From: Microgenomates group bacterium Gr01-1014_5
GTDB lineage: Bacteria > Patescibacteriota > Microgenomatia > UBA8517 > UBA10165
DNA length: 64,000 bases
Reading direction: 5' to 3'
Assembly (NCBI GenBank): GCA_007376395.1
Contig: VMGE01000007.1
Coordinates: forward strand, 8,037 to 72,036
The position numbers and the translations under genes are program-made. Below are positions 14,494 to 55,900 of this stretch, one piece after another. A model generated the notes under the pieces. It saw nothing but the letters and a program-made list of their open reading frames with translations, was not told the DNA's origin and did no database searches. Position 1 is the first letter of the stretch, and each line of letters opens with the position of its first letter.

Positions 14494-14922
14494 ATGGCAG
14501 ATGATCAAGTAACACAAACAGAAGAGAAGGATACAAAAACACTTTCGGCAAAACTTGAAAAAATCGTAGAAGAGCTCGAAAAGCTGACGGTTTTAGAGCT
14601 TTCCGAAGTTGTTCAAGCACTCCAAGAACGCTGGGGAGTTAGCGCTACCCCGATAGCTGGGCCAGCAGTAAGCGCAGCGCCAGCCGAGGCAGCGCCACAA
14701 GCCACAGGTGGAGTACAAACAGTTGTTCTTACGAACTCTGGAGGAAATAAAATTGCAGTCATTAAAGCTCTTCGCGAAATCAATCCTAACCTAGGATTGA
14801 AAGAAGCAAAAGACATGTCTGAAAAACTTCCGGCAGAAATATTAAAAGATGTAAAAGCAGAAGAAGCAAAAAACGCACAAGAGAAACTAACTGCGGCCGG
14901 AGCAACTGTTGAAGTTAAGTAA
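14494..14922 (+). CDS. rplL: 50S ribosomal protein L7/L12
   Basis: Ala/Pro hinge and C-terminal domain VIKALREINPNLGLKEAKD. Confidence 0.9.
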   Translation: MADDQVTQTEEKDTKTLSAKLEKIVEELEKLTVLELSEVVQALQERWGVSATPIAGPAVSAAPAEAAPQATGGVQTVVLTNSGGNKIAVIKALREINPNLGLKEAKDMSEKLPAEILKDVKAEEAKNAQEKLTAAGATVEVK

Positions 14923-14951: not shown

Positions 14952-14956
14952 TTAAA

Positions 14957-14988
14957 CAAAAATCCTGGCTATTTAGTCAGGATTTTTG
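14957..14988. terminator. bidirectional intrinsic terminator between convergent rplL and the ATP-grasp cluster
   Basis: AAAAATCCTG-gctatttagt-CAGGATTTTT: a 6-8 bp stem flanked by an A-run on one side and a T-run on the other. Confidence 0.55.
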
Positions 14989-14990
14989 TG

Positions 14991-15317
14991 TTACACACCG
15001 TAAATCTTTGCTTCTAAAAACGTTTCGTCTTCATCCCGAATTTGAAAAAACATTTTTCCTTCACGCCGCTGGGTCACAAGTAACCCAAGTTTTGCCAGCT
15101 GTACCACCGCCCCTTCCAACTGGTCTTCCTCGCAAACATCACTTAACAAGCGGCAAATAACAACATAGCGCAACCCTGCAGGTTCGCCATTCACTCTTGG
15201 CGCTGAAGCATTAAATACCGTCTCCAAGATCTCTCTTTCTAATTCCCTTAAATTCCCGTATAACGCTTCGTCCAACACAGGGAAAGCTCCACCTATGTCT
15301 GCGTTAATTTCTCTCAT
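14991..15317 (-). CDS. hypothetical 108-aa protein, last gene of the ATP-grasp cluster (candidate substrate or partner)
   Basis: Start overlaps the stop of the upstream ATP-grasp gene (ATGA). No recognised domain. Confidence 0.45.
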   Translation of the reverse strand: MREINADIGGAFPVLDEALYGNLRELEREILETVFNASAPRVNGEPAGLRYVVICRLLSDVCEEDQLEGAVVQLAKLGLLVTQRREGKMFFQIRDEDETFLEAKIYGV

Positions 15318-16156
15318 ATCAATTTCTCTTCCCGTAAATCCTCAAGCATTTTTTCGTACAAAAGTAAAAGTTTATCTGTCCCGTTGTCGCGGACATAAAA
15401 ATCAAAAGCTGGTTTTGAGTTGATTTCTAGGAGCCACAATTTACCCGTACTGTCTTCTGCTATATCAAATCCGGCATACCCTATTGGAAGTTCGGAGAAT
15501 ACAGGCTTAAGAAAAACATTAAAACTCTCAAGACTTGTTGTGTCCTCAACTAAAACTGCTTTTGACCCTTCCCAGTGTAAAGGACTTAAGTTTCCTGCAA
15601 AAGTAGCGCCTTCCACGTCTTTAAGGTAAGCAAAAACTATTTCATTCTTAAAAACCACAACTCGATATTCTTTTACAACTGGTATATATTCTTGACCCAA
15701 TACTACATAGTCGTAATCTTTTGAAGTTTTGTCAAAAACATGTTTAACGGCAATCAAGCATTCGTCCTTATTGTTGCACTTAAAGACTCCCAAACCCCCT
15801 GCCCCTTTATTTTTTTTAATAATCACCGGTAAACCAAAGTTTTTTTGAATCTCATCGACAATTTTCTCACAACTAGAGGCGGTTAAGTATTCTTTCCTTT
15901 TCTCTTCAATGTCGGGATCTAGAAAACCTAAAGTACGCGGCATACGAATTTTATCTTTTAATAATTGGTAGGTAAATTCTTTGTCTTGAAAAATATAAGC
16001 TTCCGACTCTTTATTATAAGGAGTGGTCCAATTAGCGAAATAATATAGGTTGTTACCGGTGCTTATCTGAATTACGTTGTGGTTATTATCAATAAAACGA
16101 AAGTCGATATTTAACCTTTTGCAAACCTGAACCAAGCATTGAATATTAACGAGCAT
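15314..16156 (-). CDS. ATP-grasp family ligase (RimK/glutathione-synthetase-like fold)
   Basis: IIKKNKGAGGLGVFK and LLEINSKPAFDF motifs of the ATP-grasp superfamily. Start taken at the ATG of MLVNIQ; the tracked ORF begins at an upstream TTG. Confidence 0.7.
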   Translation of the reverse strand: MLVNIQCLVQVCKRLNIDFRFIDNNHNVIQISTGNNLYYFANWTTPYNKESEAYIFQDKEFTYQLLKDKIRMPRTLGFLDPDIEEKRKEYLTASSCEKIVDEIQKNFGLPVIIKKNKGAGGLGVFKCNNKDECLIAVKHVFDKTSKDYDYVVLGQEYIPVVKEYRVVVFKNEIVFAYLKDVEGATFAGNLSPLHWEGSKAVLVEDTTSLESFNVFLKPVFSELPIGYAGFDIAEDSTGKLWLLEINSKPAFDFYVRDNGTDKLLLLYEKMLEDLREEKLI

Positions 16157-16188
16157 ATTTATCCCCCTTCGCGAAACACTCAAGAGCG

Positions 16189-16293
16189 TTAGCTCGCGCC
16201 TCTGAGCGAAGTGTTTTTCGCTTCGGAGGGATTCTGCCTCCCTACGAAGCGTGGGGAGAAGATATCCTGACCGTTAGGTCGCGGGAGCTTCAT
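16189..16293 (-). CDS. candidate 34-aa micro-ORF (MKLPRPNGQDIFSPRFVGRQNPSEAKNTSLRGAS) between two ATP-grasp genes
   Basis: Its ATG overlaps the stop of the upstream RimK-like gene (ATGA). It coincides with a GC-rich imperfect inverted repeat, so it may equally be a structured RNA. Confidence 0.15.
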   Translation of the reverse strand: MKLPRPNGQDIFSPRFVGRQNPSEAKNTSLRGAS

Positions 16294-17174
16294 TTTGATA
16301 AACGTGTTTGTCTTTCTAAATACTGCACTATTTCCCGAGCAACGTTAATGCCGGTTGATTCCTCGAAGCCTTGAAATTGCGCACCGCGGTTGATTTCCAA
16401 AACATAAGGATTGCCTTCTGTATCGTACATAATATCTATTCCCGCGTAGTCGGCTTTAAAAACCTTTGCAGTGCGTTCTGCTAAATCCTGCATTTGGCTG
16501 TTTAAGGGGACGCCTTGCACAGCCCCACCTCGCGCAAAATTAGTTAAAAATTCTCCTTCTTGTGCGGTCTTTTTCATAACCTTCGGCAAAGCTTTACCGC
16601 CGATTACAATAACACGATAATCTTGTCTGGTTGTCAACATTTTTTGGAAAAGATAATTTGAAATCCCCTTCTCTTTTACTTTCGTCAACAACTCGTCTTT
16701 ATTTTCAATTTTAAATACTCCTTGACCGGAAGATCCGAAACTTGTTTTGGCAATTAAAGGGAATTCTAACTTGTCCCAATCGATAACTTCTTCGGAAGAA
16801 AACGAAACGCTGGGGACAACTGGGATTCCTGACCTAACCATGTCGTAGTGCTGCTCCAGTTTATTTAAACGAATCCAAGAAATGTACGTTTCTCTATTCA
16901 TTACGGGAATAGATTTAGAATAGTAGTTAATAAGAGCTACCCGCTGATATGCAAACAACGGCCCGACAAGTCCAGCGCCAGAGACGCGCAAAACCACAGC
17001 ACTTGGCATTTCTAAAGATTTGCCATGCATTAAAACCCTTACCTTGTTTGTAATTCCAACAACTAAGTCTTTATAGAAAAGGTTTTCAGCGCTATGACCA
17101 AGCAAATGTGCTTCCTCGGTAATCCGCCCAGGAGCATAATGTTCTGTTGATTTTGAAAAAATGTGGATACGCAT
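16290..17174 (-). CDS. RimK-like ATP-grasp alpha-L-glutamate ligase family protein
   Basis: PLIAKTSFGSSGQGVFK...YAGIDIMYDTEGNPYVLEINRGAQFQG: canonical RimK-type motifs. Confidence 0.8.
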   Translation of the reverse strand: MRIHIFSKSTEHYAPGRITEEAHLLGHSAENLFYKDLVVGITNKVRVLMHGKSLEMPSAVVLRVSGAGLVGPLFAYQRVALINYYSKSIPVMNRETYISWIRLNKLEQHYDMVRSGIPVVPSVSFSSEEVIDWDKLEFPLIAKTSFGSSGQGVFKIENKDELLTKVKEKGISNYLFQKMLTTRQDYRVIVIGGKALPKVMKKTAQEGEFLTNFARGGAVQGVPLNSQMQDLAERTAKVFKADYAGIDIMYDTEGNPYVLEINRGAQFQGFEESTGINVAREIVQYLERQTRLSK

Positions 17175-17178
17175 AATT

Positions 17179-18477
17179 TTAGTGTGGTTGGACTAAAAAT
17201 CCGGTAAGATCGCGCCTGCCAATGATTACTTTCTTTTTTAAATGGCCGCGGAAAGAGACGCCTGCGGCAGTACTTATCTTCTTCCCACCGAGCCAAAATG
17301 TCAAGCCAATAATTGGTCGCCTCTCCTCGCCCAAGGGATTTCTAACTTTTCTTGTCCCTAAAATATTAGACTCTTTTAACAATCCTAATTTTTCAGCAAG
17401 TGTCCAGTCGACAGATGTGCGCCAAGCGCCGCTATCCACTTTTGCCTGAACCTCAATTTTTTGTCCTTGATCGCCTAATATTTTTATCATTTCAAAAATA
17501 TTGACTGTTTTTCCTCCTTCTGCTTCAGCGCGGACGCGGGCGGCAAAGGAAGAGGCAAAAAGCGCTTTGGCAATTTGCACACCTTGCTGTGCGCTCTCCA
17601 CCCGCAAACCTTCAACCCGGTCAAGTCTGCGGCGCAGACCCGCAATGTTAGCAAGCTGAATTTCTAACCCGGGTTCGGCATTAACTTCAAGCACCATAGG
17701 TCCTTTTTCCGGGTGTAAAACAACATCTACGCCCAAATAACCTAAACCAATAGGTTCTGAGCACGTAGTGGCTATTTCCAATATCCTATTCCATTGCGGA
17801 ATTTTAATGCCATGTAATTTTCTTTTTGAACCAGGTTTAAAACGGATTAAGTTTCCGTGCCACACCGCGTGGGTTGTGACGCCCGTTGCAATATCTACCC
17901 CGACTCCAATGGCTCCTTGATGGATATTTGCACGCCCTCCTGACTCTCGTGTGGGAAGTCTTAACATCGCCATTATTGGCACTTTGTTATAAACAATGAC
18001 ACGGATATCAGGTGTTCCACGATATGCATACCTACGAAAAGCTTTATTCCGGCCGACAAATTCTTCAATAAAAGCATTGTCCGGTACGTTGCCGGCAGAA
18101 TATGCGCCTTCTAAAATATCCAAGCCGTGCAGTTTTAAATCCTCTATCCCCACCCTCGTTCTTTGCGTCGTAATCCACTCTACTTGTCCTGAAGAGCTAT
18201 GCCGCGCTTTTTTCCTTACTACCACTATTCCTTCTCCTCCTAAACCCTTACTGGGCTTAAAAGCAAAACGCTCGGGAAGTTTAGTCCAGTCAAAATTATA
18301 GATATCTTCCTGGGTTGTAAACTTGGCGTAGATTTCCGGAATGGGAATTTCTGCCTTCCGCAAAATTTTTTTAGTTAGCAGTTTTGAGCCAGCGATCTTT
18401 CTTCCGCGACGCGAATTTGAAGGATAAGAATAAAGCTGAAAACGAGCGTTAAGACCAAGGATTGAAGACAAGCGCAT
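17179..18477 (-). CDS. ATP-grasp (alpha-L-glutamate-ligase-related) domain fused to a C-terminal retropepsin-like (DSGA) aspartic protease-like domain
   Basis: N-terminal ATP-grasp motifs (KPSKGLGGEGIVVV, LEVNAEPGLEIQ). The C-terminal ~120 aa contain KVDSGAW, the D-S-G-A active-site signature of retropepsin-fold 'putative ATP-dependent zinc protease' domains. Confidence 0.7.
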   Translation of the reverse strand: MRLSSILGLNARFQLYSYPSNSRRGRKIAGSKLLTKKILRKAEIPIPEIYAKFTTQEDIYNFDWTKLPERFAFKPSKGLGGEGIVVVRKKARHSSSGQVEWITTQRTRVGIEDLKLHGLDILEGAYSAGNVPDNAFIEEFVGRNKAFRRYAYRGTPDIRVIVYNKVPIMAMLRLPTRESGGRANIHQGAIGVGVDIATGVTTHAVWHGNLIRFKPGSKRKLHGIKIPQWNRILEIATTCSEPIGLGYLGVDVVLHPEKGPMVLEVNAEPGLEIQLANIAGLRRRLDRVEGLRVESAQQGVQIAKALFASSFAARVRAEAEGGKTVNIFEMIKILGDQGQKIEVQAKVDSGAWRTSVDWTLAEKLGLLKESNILGTRKVRNPLGEERRPIIGLTFWLGGKKISTAAGVSFRGHLKKKVIIGRRDLTGFLVQPH

Positions 18478-18486
18478 ATAGTTAAA

Positions 18487-19218
18487 TTAATTTCTAATTA
18501 GTTTTCTAAATCTCCAAATCTCCAAAAGCCTGAGGCCAGAGTATGTTCCCAAGAAAAGATCCAGACCAAGCACTATAAGCAGATATATTTCTGGGTTTAG
18601 GAGGGCAAATTCCTGCAAGGCGCTTAAACTTAAGAAAACAAAAGAAAATAAAGCTAATATTAAAGTTTCTACAGTTAAGGAAGCGGCAATCCGGATGCTT
18701 TTTCCCAATTGCGCGCGGGTAAAATCTTCTGCCAATAAAACCAAAATCAACACCGGAAAAATAGAAACTTCAGCCAACTCCCGTCTGCCAAAAAATTGCG
18801 GGCCGACAAAAAGAATTGCCAAAACCGCTAAAACAACAACGAGTAAAATAAGTGCCATACGGGGTAGATATTGCAGCTTTACACGCAGCCGGCGCAATAA
18901 CATCCGGGAGAAAGTTGAAACGGAAACTATCACTAAAAATAAACCGATTCCGACAACCGGACCGGTCGCAACAAAGACCGCTGACAGCGCCGCGGGTAAA
19001 AAGATTCCAAATCCGCGCAAGCCGATTAAATGGCGCGATGCGGCAATGACAGCCGCAACCAAGGGTAGTAGCAAAAGAAGAACGATATTATCAATCGGTA
19101 CGCCTTGTGTTAGTGCGTTGCGGATAGCGTAACCAATTGGATGCAGCCAGGCAGAACCCAGGTCTTGCTGTCTGACTAAGTCCAACAAAGTACTTGCTTC
19201 GAAATTTGTACTAAACAT
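18487..19218 (-). CDS. polytopic integral membrane protein (7TM-like) heading the ATP-grasp cluster
   Basis: 243 aa with about 6-7 hydrophobic helices. First gene of the co-directional cluster, separated from the next gene by 9 nt. Confidence 0.6.
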   Translation of the reverse strand: MFSTNFEASTLLDLVRQQDLGSAWLHPIGYAIRNALTQGVPIDNIVLLLLLPLVAAVIAASRHLIGLRGFGIFLPAALSAVFVATGPVVGIGLFLVIVSVSTFSRMLLRRLRVKLQYLPRMALILLVVVLAVLAILFVGPQFFGRRELAEVSIFPVLILVLLAEDFTRAQLGKSIRIAASLTVETLILALFSFVFLSLSALQEFALLNPEIYLLIVLGLDLFLGTYSGLRLLEIWRFRKLIRN

Positions 19219-19251
19219 TCCACAAGTATACCAGGCTCAGAGGCTTAAATT

Positions 19252-19300
19252 CCAGATTGCCGGATAATCAGATTTCAGATTGCCAGATCGTCAGATTATC
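19252..19300. repeat. CAGAT-rich repeat, part 1 (similar to 35001-35040)
   Basis: ccagattgccgg...tttcagattgccagatcgtcagat matches ccagattaccgg...tttcagattaccagatttgtcagat in argS. Confidence 0.6.
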
Positions 19301-19474
19301 TCTTCTTAAAAGCGTACTCTTTCCAAGTTGTTCTTAAACGATTTAATTGCTTGGAAAGTTCTTTATACGACACAATCAAGTTTTCGCATTTATCTTTCGG
19401 TATACGAGGGAACCGTTTACAAAGAACTGTAACCTTCTTGAGATGAACGCAAGTCTCATCGCTTTCAACCATAG

Positions 19475-19684
19475 CTATTTCGTAATTCTGGCAGCATCTC
19501 GTGGATTTCTTTGCCTTGAAAAGCCTTCACTAATAAGCGGTGCGATTGCTTCTCCAGATTTTATTAGCTGAGTTCTTAAATTTAAATGTGGAACTAAATA
19601 TGCTATCTCATATAAGGGGTCTAGAAGGTCTATAGAAACTTTATAAACTCTCAGATCAGAAGCTCGTTTAATAGAAGTAGACAC
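19475..19684 (-). pseudogene. fragment of a four-helix-bundle (Avd / 23S-rRNA-IVS-protein family) gene
   Basis: LRTQLIKSGEAIAPLISEGFSRQ resembles the conserved core (SQL.RAA.SI..NIAEG..R) of the four-helix-bundle family; only 69 aa. Confidence 0.3.
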
Positions 19685-19696
19685 CAGTCTATCTTA

Positions 19697-19735
19697 TCAG
19701 ATCTGAGAGTCTGGTCATCTGATATCTGGTAATCC
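19697..19735. repeat. CAGAT-rich repeat, part 2 (39 bp; 2 mismatches to 35033-35071)
   Basis: tcagatctgagagtctggTcatctgatatctggtAatc against tcagatctgagagtctggCcatctgatatctggtCatc. Confidence 0.75.
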
Positions 19736-19748
19736 GACTGTCTGAAAC

Positions 19749-19964
19749 TTATTCTCCATCTGGCTGGATGCCAAGAAGCCAAAGTACTGCGGTTTTTTTG
19801 TAACGCCTGTCTCCACGCGAATTAATTCTAATCGGAGTTAGTTTTCCGCGCTTTCCCCAGCGCTTTATAGTTAAAGGAGAAACCCTCAAAATTTCGGCGA
19901 CTTCACGGACAGTGAGAAGGTCTGGGAGGTCATTTATTTTTAGTGCTTTTTTACCCTGAATCAT
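19749..19964 (-). CDS. excisionase/AlpA-family helix-turn-helix DNA-binding protein
   Basis: LLTVREVAEILRVSPLTIKRWGKRGKLTPIRI..RGDRRYKK: the Xis-family HTH_17 pattern. Confidence 0.6.
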   Translation of the reverse strand: MIQGKKALKINDLPDLLTVREVAEILRVSPLTIKRWGKRGKLTPIRINSRGDRRYKKTAVLWLLGIQPDGE

Positions 19965-20047: not shown

Positions 20048-20584
20048 TTAATTTATTTTGTATGTTCTGGCGTTTGGTTGCGGATTTGTTCCGCCTTTTC
20101 CAGAAACATACGCTTTACTCTCCGGATCAAACGAAATCTCGGTCTCTCCCTTCCTCAGCACTTGAAACTCAAGCCGTATTACTGACAACTCGGAATTCTC
20201 AGACTGTTCGACGGTTGGATTGGCGGTCAAAGAAAATCTTCCGGATTCTTGATTCCAGAGGACTCTCACCGGCTGGCTAAAAAACGGACCTTCTGTGGCT
20301 GAAACTAACTTCAGAGCTGTCGGATCATATTTCAAACGTATGTCTGCCGCGTTAACCTGACCCGCGTCGCGCCCGCGGAAATATACGCCAACCGACAAGG
20401 TCTTTCCTGCTTGGGCTTCCCCGTTGTCAGGCGTGAGAGCCAAGGCCACTTCGGGCAATCTATTTTGCCCGACCACTAAAAAGAGGGTAACGCAAAAAAT
20501 TAACACAGAAACAGAAAGAATCGCGATACTCCAGACATGATAAAAGGTATAACGCATAACTTCCCTATTTAAATATATACGCAA
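20048..20584 (-). CDS. membrane-anchored protein with cohesin-like domain
   Basis: N-terminal TM. TLSVGVYFRGRDAGQVNAADIRLKYDPTALKLVSATEG resembles a cohesin beta-sandwich segment. Adjacent to a dockerin-bearing gene. Confidence 0.4.
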   Translation of the reverse strand: MRIYLNREVMRYTFYHVWSIAILSVSVLIFCVTLFLVVGQNRLPEVALALTPDNGEAQAGKTLSVGVYFRGRDAGQVNAADIRLKYDPTALKLVSATEGPFFSQPVRVLWNQESGRFSLTANPTVEQSENSELSVIRLEFQVLRKGETEISFDPESKAYVSGKGGTNPQPNARTYKIN

Positions 20585-43907: not shown

Positions 43908-46900
43908 ATGAGTAACCTGCCCAACATTAGCCCTGAGCTCCTTGCTAAATATCAAAGCGAGATAGAGAACCTGCATTCTTCTGCTACAATCCGCCGCAAA
44001 ATGTCCTCCCTTGGCCGCTTTCTGCGCTGGGGAAGCGCTAACGGCCACTTCCCCTCGGCAGCTGCCGGCGTGGTTGTGGTTTCTCCTTCCACTGGCGAAA
44101 CAACCTTTACTCCCCCGATTAAAGACGTGGAAAGTTTTGTCAAAGAGGCTGGAAACCAGGCAACCCGGAAACCAGGCAACCCGACAACCGGAAAAGCTGA
44201 GTTTTGGTGGGAAAAGAATCAGGGGGTCGGAAAACTTAGCACTTCAGAGAATCAGCAGAATGGGTCTGGAAATCAGGGTGTCGGCTTTTCTGCCAAAGCC
44301 TATTTCAAGGTTGGCTTATTCACACTCACCGGCCTTACGGCGGTCGCGCTCGCTTTTTTCCTTCTCAAAGAACTTCCCAAGGGCAATAAGTCGGTATTTG
44401 TGGCGCTCTCCGGGTTTGCGCAAGGACTGCTCGGGGTGTCGGAAGGTCAGAATACCAGTGATTCCGGCGGTCAGGAAACCAGTACTTCAGGAAATCAGGA
44501 CACCGGCACTTCTGATACACCGGCTGACGGATCCACCGATACACCGACTACTGACACCCAGACCTCCGATACCCTCACCGCACGCATCCTTAATTTAATC
44601 GGTAGCGATCCCCTCATTCGAGCGCTAGGTGGTCCCCTTCTGCTAAACAGTCTTGGTATCACTCTCAAAACCGATACAGGCTCGGACGGAAACATCACCT
44701 TAGCTCCAGATGGCGAAGGTCAAGTACTCCTTCGTTCCTCTACAACAAGCAAAGATTCGTTTTCAGTGACCAACTCTAACCTGACATCTGGTAACCTGAT
44801 CTCTGGTTTAGTAGGTCATGATGGATCAAACTATAACCTTTTTTCCCTTTCTTCCGGTTCTGAACCTGTAGAACGATTTACGGTTGATTCACACGGAAAC
44901 ACAGTTATTGGAGGGACAGTACAAACCGGAGGACAACTTACCTCCCCTTCGGTCGTTACCCAGCAACTGTCGGTTGAGCGCGATATCAGTCTCACCGGCA
45001 ATCTGCTAGTCGGAGGCGTAACCCGTTTGAATTCTGCCGGCCGACTTGCTTCTATCACGGGCTTCTACCAAGATTCAGGATTATTTGAAATTGACCAAGG
45101 CTCGGCCGACTCTGCCCGGATTACCAAATATCCAACTGCCGCCCAAGGCCCGTCAACTGCCGACTCTGTCACTTACAAAGTCGATGAATCCCGCACCACC
45201 AATTCTGCCTACGACACGCTTGTCCTCTACCGCACAGGCGGAACTTCATCGGCCTACGCTTTGGATATCAGAGACGGCAACTTGCATGTTGCCGACAACT
45301 CTACTTTTGACGGAGACGTAACCGTCAGCGGTACGCTCACGGCCAACATCAACAGCAGTACCCTTACTGCCGGAGCGCTTACTGTTACCGGCAACACTAC
45401 CATGGGCGGAGATTTGGCTATCAATGGCGGGGATTTAACTTCAACAGCCTCAACCTTTAACTTTTTAACTTCAAACGCAACAACTGTCAACCTCGCAACA
45501 GCCGCAACTTCGTTATCAGTCGGGGCCTCAACCGGAACTACTACTGTCAACAACGCACTCACCGTTACCGGAGCTTTTACCGCCAACGGACCGGTTTCCT
45601 TGGGCGATGGCGACGACACAGTCACCATCAACGGCACGACTTTTACCTCAACCGAAACCTCCCCGATTACTTTTAACATCGCCGACGGTATCGTTGACGC
45701 CTGGGATTTGCAGGAAGGCACGCGGAACTATATCAATGTCAATACTACTAATACGTCTGAGGCTGTGCAATTTGGCAACGCTACCACTAATCCCAGCTTC
45801 GGATTTTTAGGAACAGGCGCGGTAACCATAGCAGGATCTGCTGAAGGAACGAACGCACTTGTGATAACCGCCGGTGACATCACGGCAACTGCCGGAGATA
45901 TTAACTTAAACTCCTCAACTCCTGACATTAAAACGAGCGCCACCGGCACTGGCTCACTCTTCAACGCAAACTTAACTACCCTCAACATTGGCGGGGCCCT
46001 AACCACTCTCAATATCGCTGATTCAACCACTACCAAAACTATTGACATCGGCGGAGTGACAGCCTCTGGAACTGACACCATAAATGTCGCGACAGAAGGA
46101 ACACTAGCCGACGTCATCACCATAGGCAACACCAACGCCTCAACGACTCTAGCCCTCACCGGCGGGGATGACTGGAATCTAGCGGCAACTGGTGTACTTA
46201 CGCTCTCTGCATCGGCAGCTCAGACAACAGCCATAGTTATCACCGATACTGACTACACCAATGCCTTATCAATTGCCGACAATAACATCACTGGCACTAC
46301 CTACTCGCTTATCGGCACTGCAGCCTCTATTGATTTCTCAGAGTTTGATGTGTCTGCCTCAACCGGAAGCGTAACAATTAATGACACAGCAGATGCCGGA
46401 GCGTTCTTGGTCGAAGGCACAAATTTAGACATCAATTCTCTTGACTTTGTTGCCGCTGGAACAATCACAGCAGCCTCCGGACAGGGTCTAACCCTGTCAA
46501 CGACAAGTGCAGATATAGCTTTGACAACCGCTACTTCTGGCAATATCAACCTAACAACTGGTGCTGCCACGGGTTTAGCCAACATTCTTACAGGAAATTT
46601 AAAGGTGGGTAATGGGACGCCAACTGTTTCTTTGGACGGAGAAGATGCCTATGTTGAAGGGACGCTTGAAGTTGATGGAGCAACGACTTTAGATGGCGCC
46701 CTCACTGTTGCAGGAACTTTAACCGCTAATGGAACAGTTGCAATTGGCGACGGCGGAGACGCGATTACATTAAGCGGAACAACAATTACTTTAACTGCCA
46801 ATACTTCAGGCAATGATATTACCTTAAACCTGACAGATAACAATGCCGATGCGTTAGATATCCAGGAAGGGGCCAACAACTACCTCAATGTTGGAACTTT

Positions 46901-49900
46901 AGACGCGGGAGCCACCATGGTGTTTGGAAACGCAACTACCAACCCAACCTTTGGCTTTCTTGGCACCGGTCTCATCACCATAGCCGGAGCAGGAGCTGAA
47001 ACCAACTCTCTCACCCTTACAACAGGAAACATTACCTTAACTGATGGAGACCTTACTCTCTCAGGTGGTGAAATCTCCGCCACGGCGGATGATACGACAG
47101 GAACTTCCTTTTCGTTTACAGGAGTCAACACCACAGGCGACACCCTTGGGGTGACCGCTAATTCTCTAAGTTCTGGAAATGCTTTAAACATTGGGGTTAA
47201 CTCAACAGGAGCAGCTTCCAATACCCAAAAAGGATTAAACATTGCGCTGTCAGGAACTAACAGCACAACAACTCAAACAACGTACGGCGCACATATCTCC
47301 AACACCCATGCTGGTACTCTATCAACCAATGTAGGCCTGTATGCCACTGCCACAGGCGGAACCACTGCAAACTATGCTGCTATATTTGAAGCTGGTAATG
47401 TTGGGATTGGCGACACCACTCCAGATGCCTTTCTGGAAGTCTTAGGAATCACGGAACAGTTAAGACTGACTTACACTGACGGGACTGTTGACTCCAGATT
47501 TACTGTTGATTCTTCAGGTAATTTAACAATTAATCAAACAGGTACGGCTGGATATGTCCGTATCGGAGACTCTGGTACTCCTGGAGTTGCAACAGGAGAT
47601 GATGATTTGTATGTTGAGGGAGATTTAGAAGCAGATGGGACATTGACTGTAGCAGGAGCAGCAACATTTGCATCTTCTGGTTCGTTTGACTCCCTCACTG
47701 TTGGTGGAGGGTATGGGGCAACTGGGGTAACAATTAGCAATGCTGGAGCAATCTCTGCTAATGGGGCTTTAATTGTTGACTCTACTTCCCTGCTTACCGG
47801 AGCAGTCACCATCACCGGTGTTGCGGAAGGAACCGCTTCTCTCACTCAAACTCTGGGAGACCATGTTATTACTGATGGAGACCTTACTCTCTCAGGTGGT
47901 GAAATCTCCGCCACGGCGGATGACGCAACAGGGACAAGCTTCTCCTTTACAGGAGTAAGTACAACTGGCGATACTCTTGGTATAACGGCTAATTCTTTAA
48001 CGTCAGGAACAGCGTTAACTATTGCTTCTACGGGAACTGCTTTCAACGGCGAACTCTTAACCTTGAGCAAGACAGGCGCTTCAGGTTCAACCGCTTTCAC
48101 TTCAGATATAGCCAATGTTACCTATTCTCAAACCTTTAATGGCGGGGTTGGCCTTGCCTCAACAGGAAATGTCCTGGATGTTTCTCGCGCGATCATCCTG
48201 GACAACGCAGGTAACACCCACACCATCTCGGGAGCTTTAGTTGCTCTGTCTTCAAATGGAACCCAAACCGCGGGAACGTTAACTGATACGGCAAATGTCC
48301 TCTCACTAACTCAGTCTTACGCTTCCGCAACAGGAGCAGTACTTTCCTTTGCTAATTCCGGAGCTGGAGTTGATATCTTGGGAACTTCTTCTACCTGGCA
48401 GGTAACCAAAGCAGGAGCTGGAACCTTTGCTTCCCTCTCAACCGGTGCTGGAGCAATCTCTGGAGGAGCAGGAAGCTTTACCACCTTAACTTCATCTGGA
48501 GCATCAACTATTGGGACTGGATCTTCTTTGACCAACACCTTTGGATCTGGGGCTTCTTCAATAAACACCATTGGAGCAGTTACTACCCCGGGAGCGCTCA
48601 CTTTGCACGGGGCAACTACCTTGGACAATACCTTTACTGTTTCAGGCAGTAACTTAACCTCACTGGGCGGAAACCTAACCGTAACAGGAACTGCCTGGAC
48701 AGCTACCCCTACTATCTCAGGACTGATTACTGCTACTTCAGGATTGACTGCAAATGGAACACTCACTGCCAATACTGATGTAGACTTTGTTTTCGCTTCT
48801 ACTGAGAACTTTACCATTGCCAATACTACAGCAGGAGCAGGAGATGTGTTGGGATTATCATTTACTTCTGCCAACTCAACAGATGGAATTGACATAGCTT
48901 TTACCGACACAGCCGACGCGGCAGCAGACACGATTTCCGGATTAAATATCTCTTTAACTTCGGCAGCTGACGCCAACGATACACTTTCTGCAATAAACAT
49001 TGCCGCATTGACCGGAAACACTGCTTTGGAATATGCGATAAACATCGGTTCTGGTTGGGATACGGATATTAACGCTACTACAAGTCTTGAAATAGGTATT
49101 GGCGGGACAAATGAATTAACTCTCACTACTACAGCTTTCTCTCCTTCAACCAGTGATGGCAGTGCTTTAGGAACCGGCTCTCTCATGTGGTCTGATTTGT
49201 TCTTGGCTAACCTCTCTGTCATCAACTTTAACAATGGAGATGTAACTATTACCCATGCGACAGACGCTCTGACTATAGCTGGCGGAGCAGTAACCATCAC
49301 AGGTGTTGCCGAAGGAACAGCTTCTCTTACCCAAACTCTTGGGGATCATGTGATTACCGATGGAGATTTGACTCTTTCTGGCGGTGAAATCTCCGCCACG
49401 GCGGACGACGCGACTGGCACCAACTTCTCTTTCACCACAGGCGGACTCACCACCGGAACAGGACTTGGAGTTAGTACGACCGCGTCTGCTTCTACTGCCT
49501 TTACTGGCGACACTCTATCTGTATCTCTATCTCAGAACTGGACAGCTGCCTCCTCCCCTACCAATACTGGAAATATTCTTGACCTTTCCCGCGCACTTAC
49601 TGTTGGTGTAGCAGGCCAAACTGTCACCCAGTCCGGAGCTTTAGCCAAGCTCTCCTCTTCCGGAACTGAAACAACAGGAGACATTGCCGATTCTTCCAAT
49701 ATCTTGCTTTTAGAACAAAATTGCGGAACCGGTGTTACTTGCTCGGGAGCAGTTTTAAAAATTACCAATTCCGGCACAGGAGCCGATATTGCTCTTAAAA
49801 ACGATGAAACAATTTCAAATTCAACTAACGGCACAATTGCCTTTGGCGCAGATAAATTAACTCTTGCAACTGCCGCAGTTGGTGGAAACCTAGTAACTGC

Positions 49901-52900
49901 AAATTATGCGGGTGCGGCAACCCAAACTTCAGCCCTTTTTGGCTTAAATTTTGACATCTCAACTAACGTTACGGTCCCTAACACTGCTTCAGGCAACCAA
50001 ACCGGGCTTTCCTTAACTGTAAAAGACGGCGGATCCTCGGCAACTGCAATAGGCGTAAATCTTGCAGGAACTTTTGACCGGGGATTAGACTTTTCAAGTT
50101 CTACTATTTCTTCCGGAGGCTCAATAATCTTTAACGACACCTCCTCAACTATTGATTTAGCTGCGGTTGCCGATAATGTTTTGGAAATTACCAATTCTTT
50201 GGGCACAACGGCCAATGACAATCTGATCACTCTGGAGATTGACGCAAACACCGATGCTTCAGACAAGATCTTATTGCGTGTTGTCTCTGAGGTTGGAGGC
50301 GTAGAACAAACTAAATTCTCGGTCGACTCAGACGGAGACGTGATAGCTGGTGGTACATTCTCTGCTGTAGAAATTAACTGTACAGACTGTTTGGATTTTA
50401 CAGACCTTGAAGACACGCTCGACCTTGACGCGGCACTGGTCCTTAACCAAACCACTAACACTTGGTCCCAAACCTTTACCGGGGACACAACTGTTGGTCT
50501 TACTTACACCGCAAACTCCCTGACAACCGGCACTGCAGTTCGCCTGACTTCCTCCGGGACTATCACTACAGGAGGAGAAATTCTGGATTTGGTTGGAAAT
50601 GGGATAACGACCGGAAATTTAGTAACCGGCAGTACAACTGCCCTTACTTCCGGCTCAGCTTTATCCCTAACTGGACCATCAGCAGCAACTGTCGGCATAA
50701 CCGGCTCTTTTGTCAATCTCACATCTGATGTGGGAGCCTCGGGCAAGGTTTTAAGTTCAACTGCAACTATTGACTCTACGGGTGTCGGGGCAGAAGCCTA
50801 CAACCTTTATGCGGCAACTACCAACTCAAATTCCACAAATACAAATACCGTCAACGGCATTTACTCTACTCTAACTGACGCGGTTGCTCTAGGAAATACT
50901 AATTACGGTATCCGCTCTGTGTTAAGTAATACCGGAGCAAATACAGCAGGAACTAAAAAAGCATATGGTCTCTATTCAAACGTAACTAACACCTCAGCAG
51001 GTATTGGAGGGTCTGCAGAGACCTATGGCGGATATTTTAGTGTTACCCCTGATACCGCAGGTTCAGCAACAGCTTATGGTTTGTACGTAACTACTACCGC
51101 GGCGGCAGATACGTCTTATGGTATTGATATAGAAGGAGCCGGTAATTTTACTTATGATATAGATCTCCAGTATGACGAGACTATTTCCAACGCCACAGAC
51201 GGCACAATTGCCTTTGGTGTTGGCGGATCGGCAGAAGTTAATTTAACAGCAACTGATCTTTCTCCCGCCGTCAGTGACGGTAATGCTCTTGGTACCACAG
51301 CCCTGATGTGGTCTGACCTCTTCTTGGCAAACCTCTCTGTCGTCAACTTTAACAATGGCGATGTGACACTAACCCATTCAACTGACCTTCTGACAATTGC
51401 AGGGGGTGGGGTAACTTTTGATGGCGCAGTCACTGCCAATACAGATGTTGATTTTGTGTTTGCCGGAAATGAGAATGCGACTATTACGAATACTACTAAT
51501 ACTCTGGGAGCTTCCGGAATGCTAGACCTTGCTTCAACTGGTTCTACCACAGATACCAGAACCCTTGATCTTTCGACAACCTTTAGCTCAACAGGAGCTA
51601 CTACGTCGTATGGGCTATACAATGCCTGGACATCAAGCGCAGTAGTAACAGGAGCGTCTGTTTCCCAAACCGCGTATGGGAGTTACAACACTGCTGCCAA
51701 AACAGGAGCAGACGATGCGACGGGAACATATACTCTCTACGGCACTTACAATACTGCTTCAAATACAGGCAGAACAGCAGTGGGAACAGTGAATACGTAT
51801 GGGGGGTACTTCTCGGCAACAGGAGATACCGCAGGAACCTCAAGTACCTACGGTCTCTACTCCATTGCCTTATCAGGAGACACGGGTTATGGATTATATA
51901 TTGGTGATGGGACTGCCACAACAGACTATGGTATCTACCAATCAGCCACAACAGATGACAACTACTTTGCAGGCAATGTCGGCATCGGCGATACCACTCC
52001 CGACGCGTTATTGGAAATAAACCAAGGCGATATGTTTTTCTATGGAAATACTCACGGAGCGGCTGCAGGAACAGACTATAACGCATTTAATAATGGTATT
52101 GCATTTATTGATGGTAATAGTGGAACGGGAGCAGGAAATTACTCCTCGCTCATAACAGGCGTCGCAAATGGAACATGGGGTGCAGATCTGCAATTTATTA
52201 CAAGAGCGGCGGCCGGCGGAGCTGCAACTGAAAAGATGAGAATAAGAGCAGATGGCAATGTTGGCATCGGTGACACAACGCCTGCGGCTCTTTTTACCGT
52301 CGGCAATACCGATCTCTTCCAAGTATCCTCAACCGGAGGCGCGGTAACTATCGCTGGCGTTGCAGAGGGCACTGCCTCTCTTACCCAAACTCTGGGAGAT
52401 CATGTAATTACCGATGGAGATTTGACTCTTTCAGGTGGAGAAATTGCCGCTACTTCAGATGATGCCACCGGAACCAATTTCAGCTTTACCACAGGCGCGC
52501 TTTCCACAGGTCTTGGAATAGGAATTGTTTCAACTTCTCAAGCCATAACTTCCGGAGGACTCTTGTCTGGCACTCTCACCTCTTCTTCTGCTACTGGTTC
52601 GTTTAGTGGTGACATTGGCCTGCTTTCAACTTCCCGAACTAACGCTACAGCTTTGCAAACACTAACTGACTCTGGGAATATATTAGACTTGGGAAGAACC
52701 ACTATTACCAACCATGCAAGCGCCACTACTAATGTCACAGGTTCAATCCTTAACATTTCCAATATCGCAACCCAAACTCTGGGAACACTTACCGACTCTG
52801 CTAACTTGGTTGTTGTTACCCAGGACGCAGATGCAACAGGAGCTCTACTCCACCTTGTTTCAAATAGAAGCTCTACCAACTACTCGCTGTTAATCGAGCA

Positions 52901-55900
52901 AACAAGCGGCGGGACAGATACGCTTTCTTTAACTGACGCAGGCAATTTGGCAATTCTTGGAGATTTAACCATTACAGGAGGCAATATCACTTCAGCCCTA
53001 ACTCTTGATTCAACTTTAACAGTTACAGGAACAACAACACTCAACGGCATAGCTAATATAGGCGACGGGGGCGACGCGATAACGCTTTCCGGAACGACAA
53101 TTACTTTAACTGCTAATGGGGTTGGAAATGATATAACCTTTAACTTGGTTGACAATAATGCCGATGCGCTGGATATTCAGGAAAGTACAAACAATTACAT
53201 TAATATTGGAACCTTAGACGCAGGCGCGGCTATGGTATTTGGAAACGCAGGCACCAATCCTACTTATTCTTTCTCGGGCAGTGGCGCGGTAACAATTACA
53301 GGTTCTGCGGAAGGCACTGCCTCTCTTACCCAAACAACTGGCGATCACGTAATCACTGACGGAGATTTAACTTTATCCAGTGGTGAAATTACAGCTACCA
53401 GCGACGATACAACAGGAACCTCTTTCTCGTTTTCCGGCACTAACCAATCAGGAGATCTCATGGGGATCACCGCAAATTCCCTCACAACAGGGACAGCCTT
53501 GTCCCTGTCCTCTACCTCTACCGCAGGAGGAGCTTCCGGTGTATCAAAAATGATCGATATAAATCGAACCGGTACAAATGCTCAACTTGCCCATACCGCT
53601 TACGGCATTTACTCTGCGGTATCCACCGGCAACGTCACCAGTGGAACTAACATCGCGGGTTATTTCTCGGCAAGTAACGCAACCACAGCCAACTATGGAT
53701 TGATTGTTGAAAATGGCAGTGTGGGTATTGGGATAACCGCACCAGCAACCACCTTAGACATAGACTCAAACAGCAATACTCAAAACTTAAGGCTAAGGGG
53801 TACTGCGGGAACAACCGAAATTGCAGATATGTTTATCAGAGCATCTGGAGCCTTGGTCTTGGGAACAGAAAACACAGGAGCGGCGCTAGCATACGTTGAA
53901 ATAGATCCTGAAGACAATGAGTACGGACTTATTTTAAGAGATTCTAATACAGGGGCAGGTACTAGCGCAACTTACGCCAACCTTTATACCACCGACGCAA
54001 CTGTTGATTACTTAAATATTGTGGTTGGCGCAACAACTGCTACAGCAGGGCTGGTAATTGATGATGATAATCAAGTCGGTATAAATACCGTAACTCCTGA
54101 ATTTCCACTTGATGTCTACACTGCTACCGATGTCTATGCAGTTGCATTCGGAGACAACACAAGTAGTAATTCCAACCTTCGAATCGCTGGTACGGCTGGT
54201 GGAGCTACTGGATATGGGTTAATTCAAATGTTCCAAGGCAACACAACGGGGGGAAACTTGGTACTCCAAAGTGCTGCTGGAAGTGTCGGTATCGGCACAA
54301 CTGCTCCGGATGCGGCACTGGAAATAAACCATGCAACTGGGGATTCTTTAAGATTGACATACAATGATTCAAACGGAACGGCTGCCAATTACACTGACTT
54401 CTCTCTCTCCTCCACCGGAGCATTGACTTTGACAGGTAGCGCGGCGACTCTTGGAGCCAGCGCAACAGCAGAAAAAACTTTCTTCACCTTAACTCCTGGG
54501 ACTATTACACTCACTGCTCCAACTGCCGTAACCTCCCTCATGGAAACGGCAGTTATTACCGGATCAACTATTGCCGCTTCTGCGGCAACCACCGTTAATA
54601 ACGCGGCAGGTCTTTCCATCTCTGCTCCCATAGATAGTACCAATGCTACCCTCACCACTTCCTCTGCTCTAAGAATTTTAGATATCACTTCAGGAGCAGG
54701 AACATTAACAACTCAATATGGAATTTATATAGATGCCCCAACCGGCGGAGCCACCTCAAATATTGGCCTCTACAACGCAGGGACGACCACACTGGTGGGA
54801 GCGGTTACCAATGCTGGTGGAATCTCCGGAGGAGCAGGTAGCTTTACAACTCTTGCTGCTTCTTCAACTTTAGCCGTAACCGGAGATACCACTCTAACAG
54901 GAGATTTAGCAGTCAATGGCGGAGATTTAACAACAACGGCCACAACATTTAATTTATTAAACGCAATGACCGGCACGCTCAATTTCGGGGGTGGAGTTGA
55001 CACTGTAAATATTGGCGCGGCGGGCGGAGCGGCGACAACTATAAACGTTGTAGGTGCGGTGGCGTTTAGTGGGTCAACAGGTGTTGGTCTTTCTATCGCA
55101 ACTGGTGGCCTCACCGTCACTGCTGGCGGGGCAACAATTACGGCTGGAAATTTGGGAATTGGAGTAGCAGTAAACACAGCTATTAGCGCCCGAGCGAATT
55201 CAACAGCCCTTCTCACTGCCGACCAGATTGGTTTTTACTCCGACCCGATTTTCACAACTGCGGCAACAACAAAAGGAGCTGGTTTTCTCTCATCCTTTAG
55301 AACAGCAGGTTCTACAACCATGACTGATGGGTATGGATATCTCGTAGAAAGCCCCGCTATTGGAGCTCTTTCTGCTATCACCAACTTCTATGGCGTTTAT
55401 GTAAAGAATCAAAACAGTGCCCTGATAACCAATGCTTATGGTGTCTACATTGCAGCACAAACAACGGCCGTCACCACCAACATCGGCCTCTACAATGCAG
55501 GGACAACGACTTTGGTGGGGGCGACCTACATCAACGACACATCAAATGCCAACTCCACCACAGGCCTCACCATCAACCAAGGAGCAAGTGATGATCAAAT
55601 TTTTGCACTGAAATCATCTGATGTTCTTCATGGAATGACAGCCGTTGTGGAAACGGATACGTTCGCAGCATTCTATAAGACAAGCGCTGGTGGCGGTGGA
55701 CTAGAAATAGATTCAACAACTGACGCAGATACCGAGGCCAATCGACCGGCATTTCTTGTACAAGCAACGTCGGGTGTGGCCGCAGATACTACCAAAACAA
55801 CCTCTGGACGTGGAGTCTTTGAAATCCGATCTGGTCTAGTTTCCGGAACTGGTCGCGCTGATGTCGGAACGAATGGCAGCCTTATGGCTGTACTCAATAA

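Follow-up and report, generated by a model that had tools for sequence, protein, structure and literature searches.

What do three ATP-grasp ligases, a retropepsin-like protease domain and a polytopic membrane protein do together in one operon of a Patescibacterium? The question is raised by five co-directional open reading frames (ORFs) on the minus strand at 14991-19218 of a 64-kb stretch of DNA from Microgenomates group bacterium Gr01-1014_5 (contig VMGE01000007.1); "the window" in what follows is this whole stretch. An earlier note, made from the letters alone, had placed here a seven-transmembrane-like (7TM) protein, an ATP-grasp ligase fused to a retropepsin-fold domain, a RimK-like ligase, a third ATP-grasp ligase and a small protein, and had proposed that the ligase adds amino-acid tails to a target and that the protease trims them. 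The five ORFs are indeed where it put them, all on the minus strand, and family, profile and structure comparisons confirm the 7TM, ATP-grasp, retropepsin and RimK-like domain calls. The logic of a ligase with a trimming protease likewise matches RimK/RimB and RloABC, which have since been characterized (PMC11957791, PMC12239564). In Pseudomonas aeruginosa the rloABC operon encodes a secreted retropepsin (rloA), an inactive transglutaminase joined to a 7TM domain (rloB) and an ATP-grasp ligase (rloC) (Lormand et al., mBio 2025, on P. aeruginosa/fluorescens; PMC12239564); RimB, a cytoplasmic RloA homolog, trims the Glu tails that RimK makes on S6 (RpsF), and stimulates RimK (PMC11957791). We favor, with moderate confidence, the reading that the window holds a Patescibacterial (Microgenomates, Candidatus Blackburnbacteria-like) form of an Rlo/Rim-type peptide-tail system, a membrane machine that combines ligase and protease.

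A conserved two-gene core

The first two genes of the operon encode an RloB-like 7TM membrane protein (19218..18487, 243 amino acids (aa), PF14402) and a fusion of a PF14397 ATP-grasp domain to a C-terminal retropepsin domain that carries the motif KVDSGAW (18477..17179, 432 aa). A word-based search with the fusion protein returned more than 4,466 matches, the top 120 of which are all full-length, and a survey that took a single genome for each GTDB species turned up no fewer than 593 loci that encode a relative of the ligase; the census figures given here refer to the best 80 of these loci (labeled L001, L003 and so on), whose matches all extend over the protease domain and are 37-66% identical to the window protein. 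In 78 of the 78 loci that include upstream DNA, the gene directly upstream of the fusion gene, on its own strand, encodes a 7TM homolog, so that the co-conservation of 7TM, ATP-grasp and retropepsin modules predicted from the sequence is borne out. Since this adjacency is complete and the other neighbors vary, we conclude that the conserved core consists of two genes, the 7TM gene and the ligase-protease gene.

What surrounds the core depends on the distance from the window. In all 50 loci with at least 53% identity, the next gene downstream of the fusion encodes another ATP-grasp ligase; the extra ligases number one in 20 of these loci, two in 24 and three in 6, and they are mutually divergent (24-39% identity). 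Extra ligases, which had been thought special to this version, are therefore typical in Microgenomates. In 13 loci below 53% identity the position after the fusion is instead taken by a gene of the PF08014 MATCAP family (named for a tubulin carboxypeptidase), at a gap of 8-193 nt, which in 12 cases does not exceed 22 nt; the MATCAP gene is second downstream of the fusion in L055 and is fused to the ligase-protease gene in L077. The closest relatives, L001-L003, have a 494-aa MATCAP gene between the gene for the 108-aa protein and rplL (L001 9401-10916); the corresponding position of the window (14969-14992) is 22 bp, and no MATCAP homolog was found in the 64-kb window. MATCAP genes that adjoin or are fused with the ligase-protease gene fit a chemistry that takes place on C-terminal tails. 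Further neighbors in distant loci are uvrA, a gene for a membrane-anchored transglutaminase-core protein, a holin_4-like gene and mnmA.

The protease domain of the fusion protein

Residues 318-432 of the fusion protein (17182..17526) form a retropepsin-like aspartic protease domain, as recognized by profile, AlphaFold2 and Foldseek comparisons. The PF05618 family scores below threshold on the fusion protein itself (19.7 vs 27 bits) and is a precomputed Pfam match for many of its homologs. The catalytic Asp348 is encoded at 17434-17436, inside KVDSGAW, which presents the clan AA hallmark of a hydrophobic-hydrophobic-D-[ST]-G-A active-site loop; 120 of the 120 best homologs carry D[ST]GA in their C-terminal tail, and D348, G350 and A351 are invariant in an alignment of 64 sequences. 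A profile of the domain built from 36 homologs matches the PDB entries 9g59 (RloA2, E = 1.3e-5), 9g58 (RloA, 6e-4) and 2pma, followed by foamy-virus protease, Ddi1 and ApRick. The AlphaFold2 model of the domain has a mean predicted local distance difference test (pLDDT) score of 89, and the best 50 Foldseek matches of this model in the PDB are all retropepsins, the first of them 2pma, Pseudomonas RloA and RloA2. The earlier note had named the lack of a retropepsin fold, or of a conserved Asp in homologs, as grounds for giving up its assignment; the model and the alignments point the other way, and the domain is predicted to fold as a retropepsin with its catalytic Asp intact.

The residues around the active site suggest what such a domain might bind. 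In RloA, polyglutamate is coordinated by K46, two residues before the catalytic Asp, and by R114 and R137 (PMC12239564). Residues K29, R70 and R93 of the window domain (domain numbering) align with these three, a correspondence that we infer from the alignment; K29 and R93 are invariant and R70 nearly so, and the spacing of 23 residues between the two arginines is identical in RloA. The domain as a whole is net basic, with 20 K+R vs 12 D+E. It is shorter than RloA-like proteins by about 26 residues, including part of the stretch between the active site and the RP motif. The fusion protein has no N-terminal hydrophobic segment or signal peptide, and because the protease is attached to an ATP-using cytoplasmic enzyme, we place it inside the cell.

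The ligase domain and the 7TM protein

The ligase domain of the fusion (residues 1-305, 17563..18477) is of the RloC type. It matches PF14397 (3.5e-65) and the TIGR02291 model "alpha-L-glutamate ligase-like protein" (3e-79); the latter score, 266 bits, is under the cut-off of 314 bits, which makes the domain a relative and not an equivalog of RloC. As the rloABC comparator we used the Legionella adelaidensis plasmid copy (NZ_LR134414), to whose rloC-like gene (297 bits on PF14397) the domain is 40% identical. E264 and N266 are invariant in the 64-sequence alignment, and in our reading of the sequences the D...E-x-N metal/ATP motif is kept in all three ligases of the window.

The 243-aa protein matches PF14402 (7TM_transglut, 4.4e-24) over model positions 58-247, and matches the NCBIfam RloB model NF052267 at positions 314-507 of 508 only. 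The Legionella counterpart, a 508-aa "inactive transglutaminase family protein" that carries both PF14400 and PF14402, is 33% identical to it over residues 314-505, and the family search found no match to PF14400, the inactive transglutaminase domain, in the window protein. Since it aligns with the C-terminal part of RloB only, the window protein corresponds to RloB's 7TM half, with the transglutaminase-like domain absent. Its hydropathy profile has about seven hydrophobic segments; the N-terminal tail is acidic and the cytoplasmic loops and C-terminal tail (RLLEIWRFRKLIRN) are basic, a distribution that suggests a 7TM topology in which the chain starts outside the cell and has its C-terminus in the cytoplasm.

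Fusions of the same modules

A search of 1.84 billion representative proteins with the protease-domain profile gave 1,384 matches at E<=1e-3, of which 431 are at E<=1e-10, and domain architectures were read among the best 150. At least 17 of these, judged by length and domain position, are proteins of about 370-414 aa in which an N-terminal hydrophobic anchor is followed by the retropepsin and a PF14402 7TM domain (five are Pfam-confirmed). For one of them, P0323, the next gene is a stand-alone PF14397 ligase with a 4-nt overlap, and in P0343 (657 aa) anchor, retropepsin, 7TM domain and PF14397 ligase are united in a single chain. PF14397-retropepsin-MATCAP chains occur in the metagenomic protein P0356 and in L077, and in P0256 a tandem pair of retropepsins precedes the 7TM domain, which fits the need of retropepsins to dimerize. 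Given that the same modules are fused in several orders, the ligase, the protease and the 7TM module very probably act as one complex.

The anchored fusions also bear on the side of the membrane at which cleavage takes place. Their protease stands in the place of RloB's periplasmic domain and so is probably extracellular, which means that the same type of protease would serve on both sides of the membrane in different proteins. This is most simply explained if the product of the ligase crosses the 7TM protein or sits in it.

One unexpected architecture was also met with: P0295 (539 aa) joins a class I lysyl-tRNA synthetase domain (PF01921) to a C-terminal retropepsin of the window type.

Proposed mechanism

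In the mechanism that we propose, the ATP-grasp domain of the fusion would attach amino acids, in an ATP-dependent reaction, to a carboxylate acceptor on the cytoplasmic side of the 7TM protein; the added chain would most likely be glutamate, alpha-linked and acidic. The retropepsin domain, dimerizing through the oligomeric ligase, would cut this acidic chain and so limit or release the product, the part that RimB plays for RimK. The two downstream ligases, the RimK-like one and the third, might prime, extend or diversify the chain, and in relatives the MATCAP-family carboxypeptidase would edit it too. The 7TM protein would pass the product across the membrane or couple its synthesis to the state of the envelope, and the physiological role, by analogy with the rloABC phenotypes, may be envelope or osmotic homeostasis.

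Several points weigh against this reading. We know of no biochemical product for any RloC-type (PF14397) ligase, and the case for glutamate comes from the protease side only; TIGR02291 and TIGR00768, the latter on the RimK-like protein, both score under their curated cut-offs. The shortfall of about 26 residues in the protease domain means that its specificity could differ from that of RloA-like proteins, and since the window protease is cytoplasmic, in contrast to the extracellular RloA and the anchored fusions, the role of cleavage may differ as well. No acceptor protein or peptide was identified in this analysis, and, instead of forming a conduit, the 7TM protein could serve as a sensor or anchor. 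RloA needs at least 8 Glu in vitro (PMC12239564), whereas the window domain is more compact.

A bolder form of the proposal, which we offer tentatively and regard as doubtful, is that 7TM_transglut proteins are dedicated conduits for non-ribosomal peptides: an RloC-type ligase would build an acidic chain inside the cell, the 7TM protein would thread it outward, and the retropepsin would cut it. If this were true, lineages with RloA or anchored fusions would cut the chain outside the cell and Patescibacteria would cut it inside, and the switching of the protease between sides, together with the single-chain fusions, would mark an unrecognized machine for the synthesis and secretion of poly-amino acids that is widespread in ultra-small bacteria.

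The diversity of the extra ligases could also be read as an envelope peptide or polymer pathway, in which diverse ATP-grasp ligases assemble a short peptide or polyamide stepwise, in the manner of Mur/Ddl or cyanophycin enzymes, the 7TM protein flips the product and the protease matures it. The one to three mutually divergent ligases per locus, the co-located methyltransferase and GNAT genes, the transglutaminase-core and holin-like proteins of distant loci, the extracellular placement of the protease in the anchor-retropepsin-7TM fusions and the Pfam label of PF14397 ("sugar-transfer associated") all agree with it, as do the cell-shape and beta-lactam phenotypes of rlo mutants (PMC12239564). 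The accessory genes differ among loci, however, so that no fixed pathway is kept; the basic residues that the protease domain conserves correspond to those reported to bind polyGlu in RloA; and the window protease is cytoplasmic. On these grounds we think such a pathway unlikely, and continue with a tail-making ligase and its protease at the membrane.

Linkage to ribosomal protein genes

The operon faces the genes nusG, rplK, rplA, rplJ and rplL, which are on the plus strand, and converges on rplL (14494..14922). The earlier note had described it as sitting where rpoB and rpoC normally follow rplL, and among the ORFs of the window there is no rpoB- or rpoC-sized one beside rplL. The convergent set rplL-rplJ-rplA-rplK-nusG is present in nearly all of the 50 loci at 53% identity or more, and is lost in more distant ones; the operon is not co-directional with the ribosomal genes, and the linkage is single-lineage synteny. 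A functional linkage to rplL was considered and rejected, given the convergent orientation and the loss of adjacency in distant loci.

This neighborhood is the main attraction of a different reading, that the system modifies the ribosome in the manner of RimK and RimB, placing Glu tails on S6 or L7/L12 that the fused protease trims; it would explain the position beside rplJ-rplL, which nearly all the closer loci share, the 294-aa protein is RimK-like, and RimB offers the precedent of a cytoplasmic retropepsin that trims RpsF tails (PMC11957791). But the convergent orientation means separate transcription, the adjacency is gone in loci below about 50% identity (where uvrA, transglutaminase-core, holin-like and mnmA genes are the neighbors instead), the invariant partner is a membrane protein and not a ribosomal gene, the C-terminus of L7/L12 is VEVK and not Glu, and the fused ligase is of the RloC type and not the RimK type. 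We consider ribosome modification quite improbable, well behind a membrane-associated Rlo/Rim-type system.

Accessory ligases, the 108-aa protein and an inserted element

In gene order, the gaps between the first four genes of the operon measure 9, 4 and 133 nt; the last two genes overlap in ATGA, which places the start of the gene for the 108-aa protein on the stop of the third ligase. The RimK-like ligase (17174..16290, 294 aa) matches PF08443 RimK (2.7e-28, 99 bits); Rimk_N (2.5e-5, 24.9 bits vs a cut-off of 26.4) and TIGR00768 (138.1 vs 143.4 bits) fall just short of their cut-offs, and the graspetide maturase model TIGR04187 scores weakly (31.7 bits vs a cut-off of 350). The third ligase (16156..15314, 280 aa), which matches several ATP-grasp families, starts at ATG 16156, as in close relatives, where the mechanical ORF list gave TTG 16183. 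Its close homologs are confined to three clusters (85-97% identity), and its next-best matches, at 44-49% identity, are stand-alone genes of filamentous cyanobacteria (Pseudanabaena, Microcoleus) that adjoin alaS or argS in two examples. These matches suggest horizontal transfer between cyanobacteria and a Patescibacterium, and the third ligase is a lineage-specific accessory gene.

The 108-aa protein (15317..14991) belongs to no family: it has homologs in only five clusters (64-95% identity), and no Pfam, NCBIfam or PDB sequence match. Its AlphaFold2 model, which shows an H-H-H-beta-beta pattern, is of low quality (pLDDT 49.5), and Foldseek returned nothing significant (best E = 0.14); winged helix-turn-helix regulators predominate in the list, a weak hint that the protein might be a winged-helix one. 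The note had suggested it as the substrate or a carrier, but five closely related clusters are too few for a general role of either kind.

Between the second and third ligase genes lies a GC-rich structured insertion of 136 nt (16157-16292, minus strand), whose first letters are ATGA and whose last, GGGGGATAAA, form a run like a Shine-Dalgarno sequence; the 3' end of the window copy thus puts GGGGGA 7 nt ahead of the ATG of the third ligase. Its minimum free energy is -57.5 kcal/mol (z = -4.1), and none of 200 shuffled sequences was equally stable. It includes an ORF of 34 codons (16293..16189), which is 30 codons in the other copies. These copies, 92% identical, are in metagenome contigs otherwise unrelated to the window (L088 3755-3890, L089 899-1036), and in three of three copies the element covers the 3' end of an ORF, which in the window is the RimK-like gene with its stop codon. 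L001 and L003, at about 90% nucleotide identity, are without the element, with only 5 nt from the stop of the RimK-like gene to the next ATG; no further copy was found in the rest of the window, and one locus has an 18-nt match at the level of chance. A permissive Rfam scan of 16100-16400 gave no match at E<=10, which argues that the stretch is not a known riboswitch or ribozyme. The three copies vary at too few positions for covariation to support or refute the structure, and the two metagenome copies break two pairs of one predicted helix.

Of the earlier claim for this region, the GC-rich structured stretch stands; its presence in unrelated contigs and its absence from relatives leave no conserved precursor peptide and no conserved regulatory RNA. 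The 136-nt stretch is a small repeated element, perhaps a mobile one that inserts at gene junctions. The notion of a maturation pathway like that of ribosomally synthesized and post-translationally modified peptides, with the 34-aa ORF or the 108-aa protein as a substrate that is ligase-modified and protease-cut, draws on the fact that ATP-grasp enzymes and a protease are encoded next to a short ORF and the gene of a short protein, and on the weak TIGR04187 match of the RimK-like protein, but is extremely improbable, with the ORF lying wholly within an insertion that the closest relatives lack, the 108-aa protein in five clusters vs a core in at least 80 species-level genomes, TIGR04187 far under its cut-off, and no leader- or core-like peptide conserved beside the core. 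The mechanism does not include the 108-aa protein, the third ligase or the 136-nt element, which were added at the level of the strain or clade.

Transcription signals and flanking DNA

The convergent ends of the 108-aa gene and rplL are separated by a hairpin read from the sequence (14955..14988), AAAAATCCTG-N10-CAGGATTTTT, which is flanked by A and T runs and is likely a bidirectional terminator. The automatic promoter and terminator scan gave a signal no higher than background, and missed this hairpin because its loop exceeds 8 nt. Upstream of the operon, our reading of the sequence picked out an extended -10-like motif, TGGTATACT (19219-19232), which the consensus scan did not report. It stops 6 nt short of the start codon (ATG) of the 7TM gene, and as no Shine-Dalgarno sequence intervenes, the operon mRNA may be leaderless.

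A small DNA-binding protein of the MerR/HTH_17 type (19749..19964, minus strand, 71 aa; PF13411 6.7e-11, PF12728 4.9e-9) is encoded further upstream. Homologs of 71-86 aa (cluster 10) are upstream of the 7TM gene in 14 of the 80 loci, and one is found there also in L001-L003, L006 and L007; the protein is a candidate regulator of the operon, and a better one than the 108-aa protein.

The DNA between this gene and the operon (19246-19751) has the features of a cassette: 404 nt between 51-nt imperfect inverted repeats of ATCTG/CAGAT motifs (75% complementary), holding a 23S_rRNA_IVP-like (PF05635) gene that is split by a frameshift into ORFs of 69 aa and 58 aa. In L003 this gene is intact (128 aa), and in L001 and L003 the segment is inverted relative to the window, with only 74% identity vs about 90% in the flanks. 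The cassette directly upstream of the operon start may therefore be invertible or replaceable. Genes with cohesin and dockerin domains are also found upstream of the operon (window 20048-20584; L001 390-4414), and relatives have an additional 400-aa cohesin/Big-domain gene, which the window lacks at a junction near 20048-20051.

Elsewhere in the window, the sole ORF of more than 900 aa is one of 5640 aa (43908-60830, plus strand), and the G+C content climbs from about 0.40-0.43 to 0.46-0.52 from near 44 kb, coinciding with it. The Rfam scan of the whole window at gathering thresholds found six tRNAs only, and none of the five operon proteins matched a PADLOC defence model.

The 432-aa fusion protein is 97% identical to an NCBI protein from a Blackburnbacteria metagenome-assembled genome, and the host is close to Candidatus Blackburnbacteria (Microgenomates, Patescibacteria). 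Many records of such assembled genomes titled "uncultured Gammaproteobacteria" or "Pseudomonadales" (L008, L010, L013 and others) show the Microgenomates-type gene order at 55-66% identity, and these titles are probably not the true taxonomy.

Comparison with known systems

Iyer, Abhiman, Burroughs and Aravind reportedly predicted in 2009 (Mol Biosyst), from comparative genomics, that neighborhoods of ATP-grasp, 7TM-inactive-transglutaminase and retropepsin genes make or modify peptides, and PF14397, PF14400 and PF14402 presumably derive from that analysis. The literature that we searched, which did not cover Iyer et al. 2009, yielded no description of the Patescibacterial ligase-protease layout, and a search on Patescibacteria together with RimK returned nothing relevant.

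Graspetide and microviridin systems have a conserved precursor gene and a maturase subfamily of their own; the window, by contrast, has a micro-ORF in a non-conserved insertion and a RimK-like protein that scores 31.7 bits on TIGR04187, where 350 are needed. The domain order of the window fusion is found in haloarchaeal proteins of the RimK/LysX family that carry a C-terminal retropepsin; an example is Salinirubellus WP_338918009 (449 aa), whose N-terminal ATP-grasp domain is joined to an equally compact protease domain and which is 30% identical to the window fusion over residues 208-430. Its ligase is, however, of the RimK type (PF08443) and not PF14397, and no 7TM gene is adjacent in the annotated region.

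With the Rim systems the window shares a cytoplasmic ATP-grasp ligase and a cytoplasmic retropepsin, a natural fusion of the two activities, and a RimK-like paralog in the operon. The order of the domains and the type of ligase differ: the RimBK hybrid has an N-terminal protease and a C-terminal RimK-type ligase (Thompson et al., JBC 2025, PMC11957791; PMC7343187), whereas the window protein is a ligase-protease fusion of the RloC type. Rim systems are also without a 7TM partner, which the window has. RimB and RloA both cut runs of at least 8 Glu (PMC11957791, PMC12239564).

The likeness to rloABC is found in every module: a cytoplasmic ATP-grasp ligase of the PF14397/TIGR02291 type (40% identity), as expected of an RloC, a PF14402 7TM protein (33%), and a PF05618 retropepsin that is nearest to RloA and RloA2 and conserves the basic residues proposed for polyglutamate binding, all encoded by tightly linked genes. 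The modules are differently distributed. Where rloABC has three genes, the core of the window has two; RloB has a periplasmic PF14400 domain that the window 7TM protein lacks; and RloA is a separate, secreted protein, longer by about 26 residues, whereas the window protease, with no signal peptide, is on the C-terminus of a cytoplasmic ligase and thus on the opposite side of the membrane. The window further adds RimK-like ligases and a Patescibacterium as host. In Pseudomonas, deletion of rloB or rloC suppresses the defects of a triple rloA deletion (PMC12239564).

The rlo system of Pseudomonas affects osmotic tolerance, biofilm formation, cell shape and antibiotic resistance, and RloB has been reported as almost confined to Proteobacteria, with 96% of its matches there (PMC12239564); we find the same three modules to be common in Patescibacteria as a compact two-gene form. 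For the biology of the Candidate Phyla Radiation this means that a conserved, ATP-costly, membrane-associated system is kept despite very small genomes. For the Rlo system itself, the fusions, including the protease-7TM-ligase single chain, are strong genomic evidence for a physical complex, and with the two-gene form they offer minimal constructs for reconstitution, by which the question of the Rlo product becomes directly approachable. Set beside rloABC, the window system is a rearranged Rlo-type module that is typical of Patescibacteria.

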